24,411 bases of DNA from a virus (taxonomy: Duplodnaviria > Caudoviricetes): the IMG/VR virus record IMGVR_UViG_3300031519_004513, positions 1 through 24,411 of that record; one strand, written 5' to 3'. Position numbers and translations under genes: made by a program. Shown here one piece after another: positions 3,048 to 16,494 of the stretch. Position 1 is the stretch's first letter; each line of letters begins with the position of its first letter. The notes beneath the pieces were generated by a model. It was not told the DNA's origin. It searched no databases and saw only the letters and a list, made by a program, of their open reading frames with translations.

Positions 3048-3078
3048 AAAAAAGGACACATTAATTTGTGTCCTTTTT
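3048..3078. terminator. Bidirectional intrinsic terminator
   Basis: AAAAAA-GGACACA-TTAATT-TGTGTCC-TTTTT between convergent units. Confidence 0.85.
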
Positions 3079-3083
3079 CTTAT

Positions 3084-3179
3084 TTAAATTACAAAACAAT
3101 AAACAATGTAGATGACTGCTACTAATGCACCAACCATCCCATCGATTGCTTTTGCGTGGGCGTGTTCTTCTTCACTCAT
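3084..3179 (-). CDS. 31-aa single-TM micro-protein
   Basis: MSEEEHAHAKAIDGMVGALVAVIYIVYCFVI*; TAATG overlap with the upstream ORF; ends just before the terminator. Confidence 0.55.
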   Translation of the reverse strand: MSEEEHAHAKAIDGMVGALVAVIYIVYCFVI

Positions 3180-3211
3180 TATTCAAACTCATATTCGTCA
3201 TTAGTCCACAT
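3179..3211 (-). CDS. 10-aa mini-ORF MWTNDEYEFE
   Basis: TAATG overlaps at both ends (3211 and 3179). Confidence 0.4.
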   Translation of the reverse strand: MWTNDEYEFE

Positions 3212-3366
3212 TAGGAATTATACATTGAATGTTTGTGATCAGCAATCTCTTTCGCGGCAGTATAGTGCCCTAGAGTGCGAAGCTGTTGAATGGCCATGCA
3301 GTATGCTCTATACTCTTGTGCTTTGATAAAACGCTTCCAGCCTCTAACTAAAAAGTTATCTTCCAT
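3211..3366 (-). CDS. 51-aa small protein (MEDNFLVRGWKRF...)
   Basis: Start reassigned to ATG 3366, in TGATG overlap with the upstream ORF. Confidence 0.65.
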   Translation of the reverse strand: MEDNFLVRGWKRFIKAQEYRAYCMAIQQLRTLGHYTAAKEIADHKHSMYNS

Positions 3367-3464
3367 CACAAGCCTTCGAGTGTTAAAAAGCCAGCATACG
3401 AACGACAATTTGCTTTTTGCGATGTTTTCCAACGCTTTAATCCTGCTAACAAAAATGTATCCAT
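3366..3464 (-). CDS. 32-aa small protein
   Basis: MDTFLLAGLKRWKTSQKANCRSYAGFLTLEGL*; starts 2 nt after the DUF1127 stop, with GAGGAAG upstream. Confidence 0.5.
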   Translation of the reverse strand: MDTFLLAGLKRWKTSQKANCRSYAGFLTLEGL

Positions 3465-3466
3465 GA

Positions 3467-3688
3467 TTAGTTTCTTCCTCTATCTACAGTTCCGCCACGA
3501 CAGATGTGATTGATGTCACCGCGTGTGATACCAATGTCTTTTAATTCGTAATCGCTTAACCTGCTTAGTTGCTTATAACCCTTGTGGTCGAAACTAGAAT
3601 CAAATCTGCTTTCAGTTACAAATCCTTTGAAGAATTTTGCGACTGTATCACATAATGAACAGTAAACTTGTGTAAGTGCTGTACTCAT
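3467..3688 (-). CDS. DUF1127 (YjiS-like) small protein
   Basis: KQLSRLSDYELKDIGITRGDI is the DUF1127 signature; AGGAG SD; ATGA overlap. Confidence 0.88.
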   Translation of the reverse strand: MSTALTQVYCSLCDTVAKFFKGFVTESRFDSSFDHKGYKQLSRLSDYELKDIGITRGDINHICRGGTVDRGRN

Positions 3689-3867
3689 TTCTCATCTCCT
3701 AGCATAAGCGCTCTGGCTTCTTTGTGCATACCCATACGTGTAAGTTCAGACGCCGCTCTTGCTTTGCCAGCAGACTCGCCGAGTGCCCAAATATTATATA
3801 GTGTTGATGTTGCGATTGATTTAACTGCTTCGCAAATTGAGCAGTAGTAAGTACTAATAGTTGTCAT
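3685..3867 (-). CDS. 60-aa small protein (probable start 3867)
   Basis: TAATG overlap at 3867; MTTISTYYCSICEAV..GKARAASELTRMGMHKEARALM. Confidence 0.7.
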   Translation of the reverse strand: MTTISTYYCSICEAVKSIATSTLYNIWALGESAGKARAASELTRMGMHKEARALMLGDEK

Positions 3868-4088
3868 TATACCCATCCTGTAAGGTTTGTGTTTTGTGAT
3901 TTAAGTGCGCCATCGTTCCAAGGGTGTATATCCTTGCGTGTTGGTGGTGCGCCGTTGTTTTCTAGCATATGCTGATAAGCAAACTGCCAGTCTTTATTAT
4001 ACTCTGTCTTTGCCCATACGAGGTAATCGTTTTTAGAGGATGGTTTAGATCCAAACAATTGCCGTAGGACTGTAAACACTTTTTTCAT
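3867..4088 (-). CDS. 73-aa small hypothetical protein, first gene of the operon
   Basis: CAGGAG SD; DYLVWAKTEYNKDWQFAYQHM. Confidence 0.75.
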   Translation of the reverse strand: MKKVFTVLRQLFGSKPSSKNDYLVWAKTEYNKDWQFAYQHMLENNGAPPTRKDIHPWNDGALKSQNTNLTGWV

Positions 4089-4112
4089 AGTGATCTCCTG
4101 TTTCTATAGTTT

Positions 4113-4220
4113 TGGATGCTTGAGGAATAGCAATACCCCGGAACTTCCCCGGCGGTGCATGTACCTTTGGTACACGTCAATCGCTTTTAAGGCATGTGAT
4201 AAGTGCCCATAGTCTATCCT
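4113..4220 (-). ncRNA. Candidate structured RNA (5' leader or sRNA), family unassigned
   Basis: GC-rich non-coding island with nested stems GGAU/AUCC, GGGCA/UGCCU, AGCGAU/AUUGCU, CGUGUACC/GGUACAUG and ACC-G-CCGGGG/UUCCGG-GGU. G-U pairs favour the minus strand. Confidence 0.6.
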
Positions 4221-4269
4221 ATGTGTCTGTGTGTTGTCAAATCACCATCTAATAGCTCTTTAACACTGT

Positions 4270-4307
4270 TATTTATATAATAGTACACTCTTTATTACTT
4301 AAAGTCG
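4270..4307 (-). promoter_or_regulatory. Leftward promoter: weak sigma70-like plus TATAAATA
   Basis: TCGACT-N16-TACTAT (4307-4280), then a perfect TATAAATA (4277-4270). Confidence 0.6.
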
Positions 4308-4341
4308 ACTCCTTTTTGCATTAATTTGGCAAATACCCGCT

Positions 4342-4356
4342 ATGCATTTAACGCAT
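4342..4356. promoter_or_regulatory. Putative LysR-type regulator site
   Basis: ATGC-N7-GCAT dyad containing T-N11-A, between divergent promoters. Confidence 0.45.
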
Positions 4357-4368
4357 GCCTTAAATCTC

Positions 4369-4404
4369 TTGACTTACACTTGTATTAGTAGTATACTATA
4401 AATA
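4369..4404 (+). promoter_or_regulatory. prs promoter: sigma70 plus late motif
   Basis: TTGACT-N17-TATACT (4369-4397) overlapping TATAAATA (4397-4404). Confidence 0.75.
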
Positions 4405-4444
4405 TAACTTTACAGCAGTTCAACCACAGAGAAGAGGATCCCCA

Positions 4445-15154: not shown

Positions 15155-15754
15155 ATGAGTTTACTTAAAAATATCAATGGAATAGAACTATACGTAGTTC
15201 CTAATCAACATTGGATTGTAAGTGCAATATATCCGTATTATAAAGATCTAGAACATTTGTTTGACTTTTCGTCACACGATATGACTGCAGGTCATTGTAC
15301 TGTTAACGGAATTCAAAAGCCTTTACTACCAGATGAGTGGACACGAGAACGTGAAGACTATCGTATGTGGATGTTAGATATATTTAAACAAGTAAGTGTG
15401 CCTATTAAAGAAATTAACGATAGAGACATCGGACCTGAGTATAAAGCATGGACTATTAATTACTTTCCAGGAGGCTGGCAAGCAGGACATTTTCATTCTA
15501 TAGATAAAATGTCACAGGATAATGATAGATTTGCTTCTAGTGTTATGTTCTTTGATCACATCAAACCAAAAAAGCGTAACAAGTTCAACGGAGCATTGTA
15601 TACTACAATGCAAAGTCTTTCAGGTTATACATATGATCACAAGTTTTATCCTGAACCCGGAAGAGTAGTAATCATGGACGACAGGGTGTGGCACGGTGTG
15701 TACCCAACTGAAGATAACAGACGCTCCCTAGTATGGGACTTTGACATAGCATGA
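15155..15754 (+). CDS. 2OG-Fe(II) oxygenase-like (double-stranded beta-helix) protein
   Basis: AWTINY..GHFH..SSVMFF..PEPGRVVIMDDRVWHGVYP..RRSLVWD. Confidence 0.7.
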   Translation: MSLLKNINGIELYVVPNQHWIVSAIYPYYKDLEHLFDFSSHDMTAGHCTVNGIQKPLLPDEWTREREDYRMWMLDIFKQVSVPIKEINDRDIGPEYKAWTINYFPGGWQAGHFHSIDKMSQDNDRFASSVMFFDHIKPKKRNKFNGALYTTMQSLSGYTYDHKFYPEPGRVVIMDDRVWHGVYPTEDNRRSLVWDFDIA

Positions 15755-16494
15755 GAGTAGGCGTACGAGGAAGTAAACTTGCAATAGCATACGCAGAACG
15801 TGTATGCAACGAGTTGCCTTGCGACACAGAGATAGTTATTATCAAAACACTAGGAGACTTAAATCCTGATGTACCTATACATGAGATAGGTGGCAAGGGT
15901 GTTTTCTGTAGCGCAATCGAAAACGCATTGTTTAACAACGAAATTGACATAGCAGTACATAGTTTAAAAGACATGCCCGGCGATGTTGAACATCCTGACT
16001 TAGAGATTAGCGCAGTACTACAGCGCAGTAGTCCTTATGATGTATTGTTAGGCAAAGTGTTTGATGGAAGTACAATTGGCACTAGTAGTCCTAGGCGCAC
16101 AGCACAACTAACACAATTATATCCTAATAGTAAAATATTACCAATTAGAGGTAATATAGATTCTCGCCTAAATAAACTTGACAACGGGCAGTATGATGCT
16201 ATAATACTAGCACAAGCAGGATTAGATGCTTTAAACATTCATCGAGATGACATAACAATACTACCAATTGTTCCAGCAGTGGGTCAAGGTATTATTGCAT
16301 TACAAACAAGACAAAATAGCAAAGCAAGTAAGATTGCCAAGCAAGTAAATCACACACTAACTTTTGCACAAGCACAGTTAGAAAGAGCATTGCTTAAAGG
16401 TATTGCAGGAGATTGCCAAACACGAATAGCGGCACACGCTACAGGAAGCAATCCAATCAAACTAGAAGCAGTATATTACACGGAGAATTTATGA
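15751..16494 (+). CDS. hemC: Hydroxymethylbilane synthase (porphobilinogen deaminase), C-terminally short
   Basis: RGSKLA, GGKGVF, DIAVHSLKDMP, GTSSPRR, IRGNIDSRL, PAVGQG, ER..GDCQ (cofactor Cys). Confidence 0.93.
   Translation: MRVGVRGSKLAIAYAERVCNELPCDTEIVIIKTLGDLNPDVPIHEIGGKGVFCSAIENALFNNEIDIAVHSLKDMPGDVEHPDLEISAVLQRSSPYDVLLGKVFDGSTIGTSSPRRTAQLTQLYPNSKILPIRGNIDSRLNKLDNGQYDAIILAQAGLDALNIHRDDITILPIVPAVGQGIIALQTRQNSKASKIAKQVNHTLTFAQAQLERALLKGIAGDCQTRIAAHATGSNPIKLEAVYYTENL

Follow-up and report, generated by a model that had tools for sequence, protein, structure and literature searches.

A small-protein operon in a jumbo phage

The window, by which we mean the whole 24.4-kb (24,411-nt) stretch of virus DNA analyzed here, carries genes for ribonucleotide reductase, virion proteins, hemA, hemC, prs, DUF454 and DUF1127. 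Because one of its structural genes is matched by PA5oct-like and other phages of 285–470 kb, and because two contigs related to it are complete genomes (328 and 343 kb), we assign the window to a jumbo phage. The best plasmid matches to hemA are at 55–57% and are alphaproteobacterial throughout among the 12 matches listed, which, together with the DUF1127 gene, suggests an alphaproteobacterial host; a Roseobacter host is possible. The haem-pathway genes encode a hemA-type aminotransferase and porphobilinogen deaminase (1444–2634 and 15751–16494), and the window also encodes prs, a lipase and a cold-shock protein.

Positions 4113–4220 are the core of a leader of a small-protein operon in this marine phage. 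The leader runs on the minus strand from a T4-type late promoter to the start of ORF1 (4088), and its length of ~180 nt confirms that given in a first-pass annotation made from the sequence. The promoter, TATAAATA (4270–4277, minus strand), which we take to match the T4-type late-promoter consensus, presumably marks the start of the leader. Just before it lies a sigma70-like -10 hexamer, TACTAT (4280–4285, minus strand), which was read from the sequence and was not among the eight sites called by a promoter scan. Upstream of both promoters is a LysR-type dyad, ATGC-N7-GCAT (4342–4358, minus strand), with one mismatch to the LsrB/VtlR consensus described as GCAT-N3-TG-N3-T (PMC8844928). A loose version of the dyad pattern was found in 54 of 69 related loci, compared with 8 of 69 for control sequence. 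The operon promoters may be regulated by a host LysR-type protein. A second late promoter (4397–4404, plus strand) faces the opposite way and drives prs, so that 4089–4444 is a divergent late-promoter region. In many relatives (L001, L002, L020, L023, L031–L033) a 319-aa membrane protein replaces prs as the divergent neighbor.

All genes of the operon are on the minus strand. The Shine–Dalgarno (SD) sequence AGGAG (4095–4099) precedes ORF1 (3867–4088), a 73-aa protein of a ‘KTEY’ family that has no Pfam or PHROG assignment; its model is helical (pLDDT 69), and fold searches gave no match, the Atlas returning only clusters of ORF1’s own kind. ORF2 (3685–3867, 60 aa) belongs to a ‘RARAASEL..MG.H’ family recognized from its motif and from comparison of long contigs, and its Atlas matches all scored below 0.9. 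The third gene (3467–3688) encodes a 73-aa DUF1127 protein (PF06568, E = 1.6e-9). The ORF list places two more small frames within 3084–3432, at 3211–3432 (ORF2-like by eye) and 3084–3179, neither with a family match. A bidirectional hairpin resembling an intrinsic terminator (3048–3079, both strands), called by a terminator scan, ends the operon. In three relatives (L023, L027 and L033) the small-protein cluster is followed by a gene that we take to be pseudoazurin-like.

Homologous leaders and their possible transcription

Protein and pattern scans of viral contigs yielded 7, 11, 17, at least 120 and at least 119 loci, the last two estimated at about 210 and 250. Filtering with an anchor in the 3′ part of the leader gave 165 matches, 92 of them distinct, and removal of three that were judged by eye to be chance matches left 89 distinct homologous leaders. 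The late-promoter motif ATAAATA was found upstream in 83 of these 89. To avoid the circularity of anchor-based selection, loci were also selected by protein: an ORF1 relative was encoded in 284 of 304 stretches, and the best 80 of these 284 supplied 50 distinct upstream regions. The late promoter is present in 48 of the 50 and the canonical 3′ element in 46; two regions have a variant 3′ hairpin, GGAUG/CAUCC, that retains a UUCCC-rich loop, and two lack the element altogether. The leader element is thus an add-on to ORF1 loci.

Among 185,579 species genomes the 3′ anchor occurred only in two contigs of a single metagenome-assembled genome (MAG). One such contig (L275/L276), 335 kb long and carrying this phage operon, lies in a Marinimicrobia MAG and is probably a misbinned phage. 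No similar DNA was found in cultured phages, and no description of the leader or its hairpin unit was found in the literature searched, which lay mostly outside subscription journals. RNA libraries from four studies contain contigs over the leader, some of them free of mismatches, including one of 264 nt that spans the leader into ORF1. As these contigs carry neither strand nor end information and could derive from DNA, they are consistent with transcription of the leader; their depth and uncovered parts were excluded as evidence.

The first gene behind the 89 leaders is of ORF1 type in 74, DUF3563-like in 4 and DUF1127 in 2, with no clear SD in 7 and truncation in 2. A DUF1127-like motif occurs downstream of 32 of the 66 leaders with enough flanking sequence, and PF06568 was sought in two complete genomes with the leader and found in neither; in one of them, G001, ORF1 is absent as well. 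ORF2-type is the only cluster gene type common to all three long contigs, and by a loose motif it was found in 56 of 66 members. No single operon gene of a known RNA-binding family is common to all carriers. In the three contigs of 328–343 kb, the array of hairpins described below occurs at this single locus per genome.

Structure of the leader RNA

The leader is a conserved, folded RNA. The 108-nt piece alone is no more stable than its shuffles (z = -1.10, 28/200), and the whole leader is modestly more stable (z = -2.11, 5/200); the structure was settled by the homologues. In an alignment of 34 sequences of the window’s subtype, a five-helix, 26-pair model is 85.7% paired versus 75.1% after shuffling (0/500), slid controls reach 38–47%, and 13 of the 26 pairs show changes on both sides. 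Since RNAalifold predicted only 2 pairs from this gappy alignment, alignment-free parsing of the members was added.

From its 5′ end the minus-strand RNA begins with a terminal hairpin of variable sequence (4233–4266), found by folding and member comparison. Unit 1 (4208–4227) consists of GACA, a 5-bp stem CAUAG/CUAUG and the loop GAUAGA; its stem is 93.5% paired, with both-sided changes in 3 of 5 pairs. A variable hairpin, H2 (GGCA/UGCC, 4191–4207), has a pair probability of 0.8–0.98, and all four of its pairs change on both sides. The 5′ strand of a junction helix, P1 (4180–4185), was placed by alignment and subtype parsing. It is followed by unit 2 (4159–4179), in which UGACG precedes a stem UGUACC/GGUACA with both-sided changes in 4 of 7 pairs and a variant, CAAAG-type loop, homologues having CAAAGA at this position. 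Unit 3, the last (4135–4158), has a CCGG/CCGG stem and a variant GGAAGU loop; in the 89-member parse at least three stem pairs form in all 89 leaders, with 15 different stem sequences, and the last-unit loop ends in AGA in 66 of them.

The first-pass annotation had proposed an unassigned multi-stem RNA here, and all the strands that it named were located on the minus strand within 4113–4220. Covariation bears out its hairpins GGCA/UGCC, UGUACC/GGUACA and CCGG/CCGG and its junction helix AGCGAU/AUUGCU, of which all 42 subtype leaders keep at least 5 of the 6 pairs. Its closing helix GGAU/AUCC fails, with no compensatory change and a pair probability of 0.00; the 5′ strand of that helix belongs instead to the covarying hairpin CAUAG/CUAUG, a fourth hairpin that had been overlooked. 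Both pairings suggested for the segment UUCCUC are likewise left without covariation: that with GGGGAA is formed at 78.1% versus 78.7% after shuffling (437/500), and that with the SD averages 4.23 pairs versus 4.31 when loops are shuffled among members (990/1000; n = 82).

The idea that the leader is a novel, uncatalogued structured RNA is supported. Rfam gave no match above the gathering threshold in the window, and none of 13 weak matches overlaps the leader. Rfam 15 also gave no match in 20 member loci, and in 36 unit-bearing loci it matched only tRNA or 16S sequences.

Across members, the unit consists of an unpaired GRCR, a freely varying stem of 4–5 bp and a G–C-closed loop ending in AGA. 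The stems covary and swap freely while the GRCR flank and the AGA of the loop stay fixed. A leader comprises one to five copies (by loose count, one in 10 leaders, two in 33, three in 39, four in 6 and five in 1) and, on the 3′ side, a hairpin in competition with the junction helix; by strict count at least one unit is present in 88 of 89. Unit 1 is the one strict unit of the window; units 2 and 3 have variant loops at positions where relatives keep the canonical loop. Minimal leaders have one unit and the 3′ hairpin, with no P1. Ahead of the first unit, where the window’s subtype has an A/C-rich linker, 32 of 89 leaders have an H-type pseudoknot that covaries and whose second stem occurs in five paired versions. 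The pseudoknot, seen for instance in L038, L042, L061, L063, L096, L097 and L099, has an A-rich linker, and its first loop, too, mostly reads GAC. Constancy of flank and loop, combined with stems and copy numbers that vary freely, is the pattern of a protein-binding array.

Two further possibilities were set aside. Complementarity between the loops of unit 1 and H2, which would allow them to kiss, was seen by eye in some members only, and letters like those of the 16S decoding region are not conserved across members.

A 3′ element with two predicted alternative folds

The 3′ element (4117–4134, minus strand) comprises the 3′ strand of P1, AUUGCU (4129–4134), and an overlapping hairpin, P5 (UGCU/AGCA, 4117–4132), whose loop, UUCCUCA, is pyrimidine-rich. 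The two helices share UUGCU and are mutually exclusive, and in the window the alternative folds lie 0.3 kcal/mol apart (-25.9 versus -25.6). P5 dominates in 50 of 89 member ensembles and upstream pairing in 18. In the 42 subtype members P1 occurs in 10 strand combinations, mostly through one-sided wobble changes, and in four related members its 3′ strand is itself changed. P5 shows no compensatory change in the 34-sequence alignment; its support comes from invariance and from insertion variants that keep a stem. As modeled, this is a two-state element in which the SD would take no part. The RNA would probably refold co-transcriptionally from P1 to end in the P5 hairpin, with no switching of the SD.

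The first-pass annotation had suggested a translational switch. In one form of such a switch, a ligand or a protein would drive folding into P1 or P5 and so hide or free the SD. The near-equal energies of two folds that share UUGCU speak for it, as does the persistence of P1 throughout the subtype, and so does the window ensemble, in which pairing of the SD with the UCC that follows P5 reaches about 50%. However, only 53 of 89 members retain the CC after P5, the pairing of the loop with the SD, no better than shuffled, is reduced to three pairs or fewer in 25 of 82, and minimal leaders do without any P1. In the minimum-energy fold unit 1 also pairs with the region around the start codon; this pairing is not conserved (5/5 pairs in 6 of 76) and was rejected. 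Covariation does not support the SD and GGGGAA pairings, and a translational switch is in our judgment an improbable account of the leader.

The unit outside the small-protein operon

A search of viral contigs with a unit-1 pattern returned 85 distinct matches, of which 23 were members of the leader family (23/23 paired) and 62 were not. Both free pairs are kept in 50 of the 62 non-members versus about 14% expected by arithmetic, although these matches are not independent because they come from a limited number of phage families. A tandem pattern retrieved 38 metagenome contigs; the hairpins pair in 29 of 29 distinct contigs with flanking sequence, in 2–5 copies. A second tandem pattern retrieved no viral contigs. 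The arrays lie close to promoters in 9 of 29 versus 5 on the antisense strand, which is unconvincing.

The unit thus occurs in unrelated phages, and the genes behind it are diverse: major head, portal, DUF1376 replication, DUF2828, phrog_13908 (part of the head module and possibly a scaffold), reductive-dehalogenase-like (just below the Pfam cut-off) and camelysin-like. Five unit-bearing loci have tRNAs nearby. In gut-type phages or prophages (L452, L457, L458, L461, L464, L466, L472, L476 and L484) arrays of 2–5 units around positions 1501–1539 directly precede the SD of a phrog_13908-type gene (6 of 9 proteins scanned). Two-unit arrays in L480 (17–53) and L481 (859–895), before the reductive-dehalogenase-like and camelysin-like genes, are apparently bacterial. 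In L161, L162, L174, L175, L193, L222 and L228 the unit is part of a longer conserved non-coding stretch (around 1450–1700; no Rfam match there in L161) that is followed by a DUF2828/DUF7788 gene (phrog_850, RNA-binding). Two more conserved non-coding families contain the unit (L160, L167, L176, L202, L203, L237 and L240; L173, L211, L231, L235 and L256), and one of them precedes DUF1376 replication genes. No hairpin-forming unit was found in PA5oct, Phosso or Vibrio phage 2.275.O. Matches to the pattern in E. coli K-12 and in 201 Marinisomatota genomes are no commoner than in controls and fail to pair.

This distribution bears on whether the leader is a new class of metabolite-sensing riboswitch. 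A multi-stem junction, conserved unpaired nucleotides, a position in a 5′ UTR and the pseudoknot of 32 leaders are all features that a riboswitch would have. Free gain and loss of units between one and five copies, and single units in unrelated contexts, misfit one ligand pocket; moreover, neither an expression platform nor a conserved, covarying SD-sequestering helix was found, the genes downstream have no metabolic role, and the 3′ anchor is confined to one MAG among the species genomes. A riboswitch is therefore very unlikely. We give still less credence to DNA-level operators or neutral palindromes: the fixed GAC repeats and the dyad in the 3′ element could be protein–DNA sites, but G–U pairs throughout, compensatory stem changes and a covarying pseudoknot speak for RNA.

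The unit in bacterial rRNA leaders

Two of the unit-bearing contigs, L474 (424–620, minus strand) and L478 (690–810), are rRNA-operon leaders of Ruegeria/Tritonibacter type in which an array of tandem units lies between the promoter and boxA; tandem units have this position in the rRNA-operon leaders L519, L531 and L532 too. Ruegeria sp. TM1040 and Tritonibacter mobilis each have two strict units, with different stems, in this interval of the rRNA leader, giving 2–3 strict units per positive leader (L474, L478, TM1040 and T. mobilis). No unit was found in 11 other alphaproteobacterial rRNA leaders or in 30 Marinisomatota 16S loci. The resulting count of 2 of 13 named alphaproteobacterial leaders describes lineage-restricted presence rather than enrichment, since both positives were found by likeness to L474, itself selected by the unit pattern. 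In five Roseobacter-group replicons, all six matches with a 5-bp stem are rRNA leaders (30 of 32 matches examined).

The unit thus occupies the position of boxB in some Roseobacter-group rRNA leaders. A boxA adjoins the unit only in these bacterial leaders; by a loose boxA pattern, it lies near none of 51 non-member units and near units of 4 of 89 members.

Comparison with known RNA systems

Several known RNAs resemble the leader in part. The order of rrn signals is boxB–boxA–boxC, with boxB mostly dispensable, as described in PMC8632103. Like the nut/boxB and rrn signals, the leader has a small purine-loop hairpin near the 5′ end; unlike them, it has tandem copies with a fixed GRCR flank, no boxA beside the phage units and no identified N-like protein, and a boxA reading of the 3′ element gave no match. 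The put RNA of HK022 is described as one ~70-nt, two-stem fold with a base-paired 5′ AGACG and a triplex (PMC9378689). Both would be phage cis-acting RNAs, possibly working on RNA polymerase without a phage protein, whereas in single units GAC is unpaired and the unit is ~20 nt long and repeated; the leader folds do not match the described ~70-nt fold, and identity with put was rejected. Sponges of the CsrB/RsmZ type and T4 autogenous operators consist of short hairpins in varying number whose loops have fixed letters, and the leader shares with them fixed loop letters, free stems and variable copy number; unlike in CsrB/RsmZ, a fixed GGA is confined to unit 1, and the remaining loops begin with C or A.

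Another parallel is CIN1 (cuckoo/CcsR/NfeR, Rfam ar14), in which a small-protein operon that includes a DUF1127 gene likewise carries repeated hairpins in a UTR; a CCU loop rich in pyrimidines and an alphaproteobacterial setting are also shared. Cuckoo RNAs carry CCUCCUCCC loops, and in S. meliloti the DUF1127 protein CcaF1 binds RNA and CcsR RNAs can derive from a 5′ UTR, as described in PMC8034643. The repeated loops of our leader, by contrast, are purine-rich and end in AGA, and the leader stands under a phage late promoter, treats DUF1127 as optional and has no Rfam match; CCUCCUCCC is absent from the 12 loop types found over 89 members, the single CU-rich loop included. On the features tested, the leader is not a member of the cuckoo, nut, put or riboswitch families.

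An operon product could nonetheless act on the leader as in CIN1: an ORF2-type, DUF1127, DUF3563 or ORF1 protein would bind it, and the leader would either be cut off as an sRNA whose CCU-rich 3′ loop would act as the anti-SD loop of cuckoo RNAs does, or serve in autoregulation of the operon by the protein. The tie between the leader and the small-protein cluster at one locus per genome fits such a scheme, as do the RNA binding and the 5′-UTR origin described for CcaF1 and CcsR (PMC8034643), the CC retained in the P5 loop of all 89 members, and the wide occurrence of ORF2-type genes in the long contigs and in 56 of 66 members. Against it stand the lack of a CCUCCUCCC loop or a cuckoo match in Rfam, the limit of one CU-rich loop per leader, and the repeated units that occur far from any such operon gene. 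The first-pass annotation had suggested DUF1127 as the ligand, and this choice is weakened by the failure to detect it in either complete genome, by its motif following only 32 of 66 leaders and by the unit’s unrelated contexts. Overall, binding by an operon product, whether it leads to a processed sRNA or to autoregulation, is a serious but somewhat unlikely explanation.

A host factor as the candidate ligand

The reading that we favor, tentatively and on comparative sequence analysis, is that the leader is an array of hairpins that binds a host factor and raises RNA output. The repeated units would be bound by an RNA-binding or transcription factor that the host encodes, and the bound factor would raise the processivity or the stability of the small-protein transcript. 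We infer that the protein would read the GRCR flank, which is unpaired, together with the loop on its AGA side, as both are fixed while the stems swap freely. That the factor would be of the host, and its effect non-translational, is suggested by the unit’s presence near tRNAs and in rRNA leaders. The latter contain no ribosome-binding site that could be regulated, so units there favor an effect on RNA output that leaves ribosome access unaffected. The gut-prophage arrays whose last unit abuts the SD fit translational control equally well, and convergence of so short a unit on several unrelated ligands is possible.

More speculatively, and with less confidence than in either of the two protein-binding schemes above, GRCR–stem–AGA may be an unrecognized cross-phylum RNA signal, used in Roseobacter-group rRNA leaders and read by a core factor of the host’s transcription or RNA-turnover machinery, that many unrelated phages have borrowed as arrays for their most abundant RNAs; marine jumbo phages would have fused the array to a two-state 3′ hairpin and to a host LysR-controlled promoter that runs a DUF1127-like microprotein cluster. 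A motif of ~20 nt common to bacterial rRNA leaders and to phage leaders of several host groups points to an unassigned host RNA-binding activity. It bears on the role of upstream rRNA-leader hairpins in bacteria other than E. coli and on the means by which microprotein operons are controlled in jumbo phages. The phages are uncultured, but Ruegeria TM1040 and Tritonibacter can be grown, which allows a direct search for the ligand.

An 8-mer of the leader, GGAAAGAC, also appears in a 23S A2058 construct described in PMC12116650 and is treated as a coincidence. A possible relative is DNAVirus_2114 (Fremin et al. 2023, PMC10690425), one of a list of anonymous viral RNA candidates, described there as a 77-nt candidate in 57 marine tailed-phage sequences, with DUF1127 within 25 bp downstream in 28 of the 57. 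Compared by published description, the two may belong to the same family; DUF1127 is the first gene behind only 2 of our 89 leaders, which argues that DNAVirus_2114 is a sister element or a sub-group.
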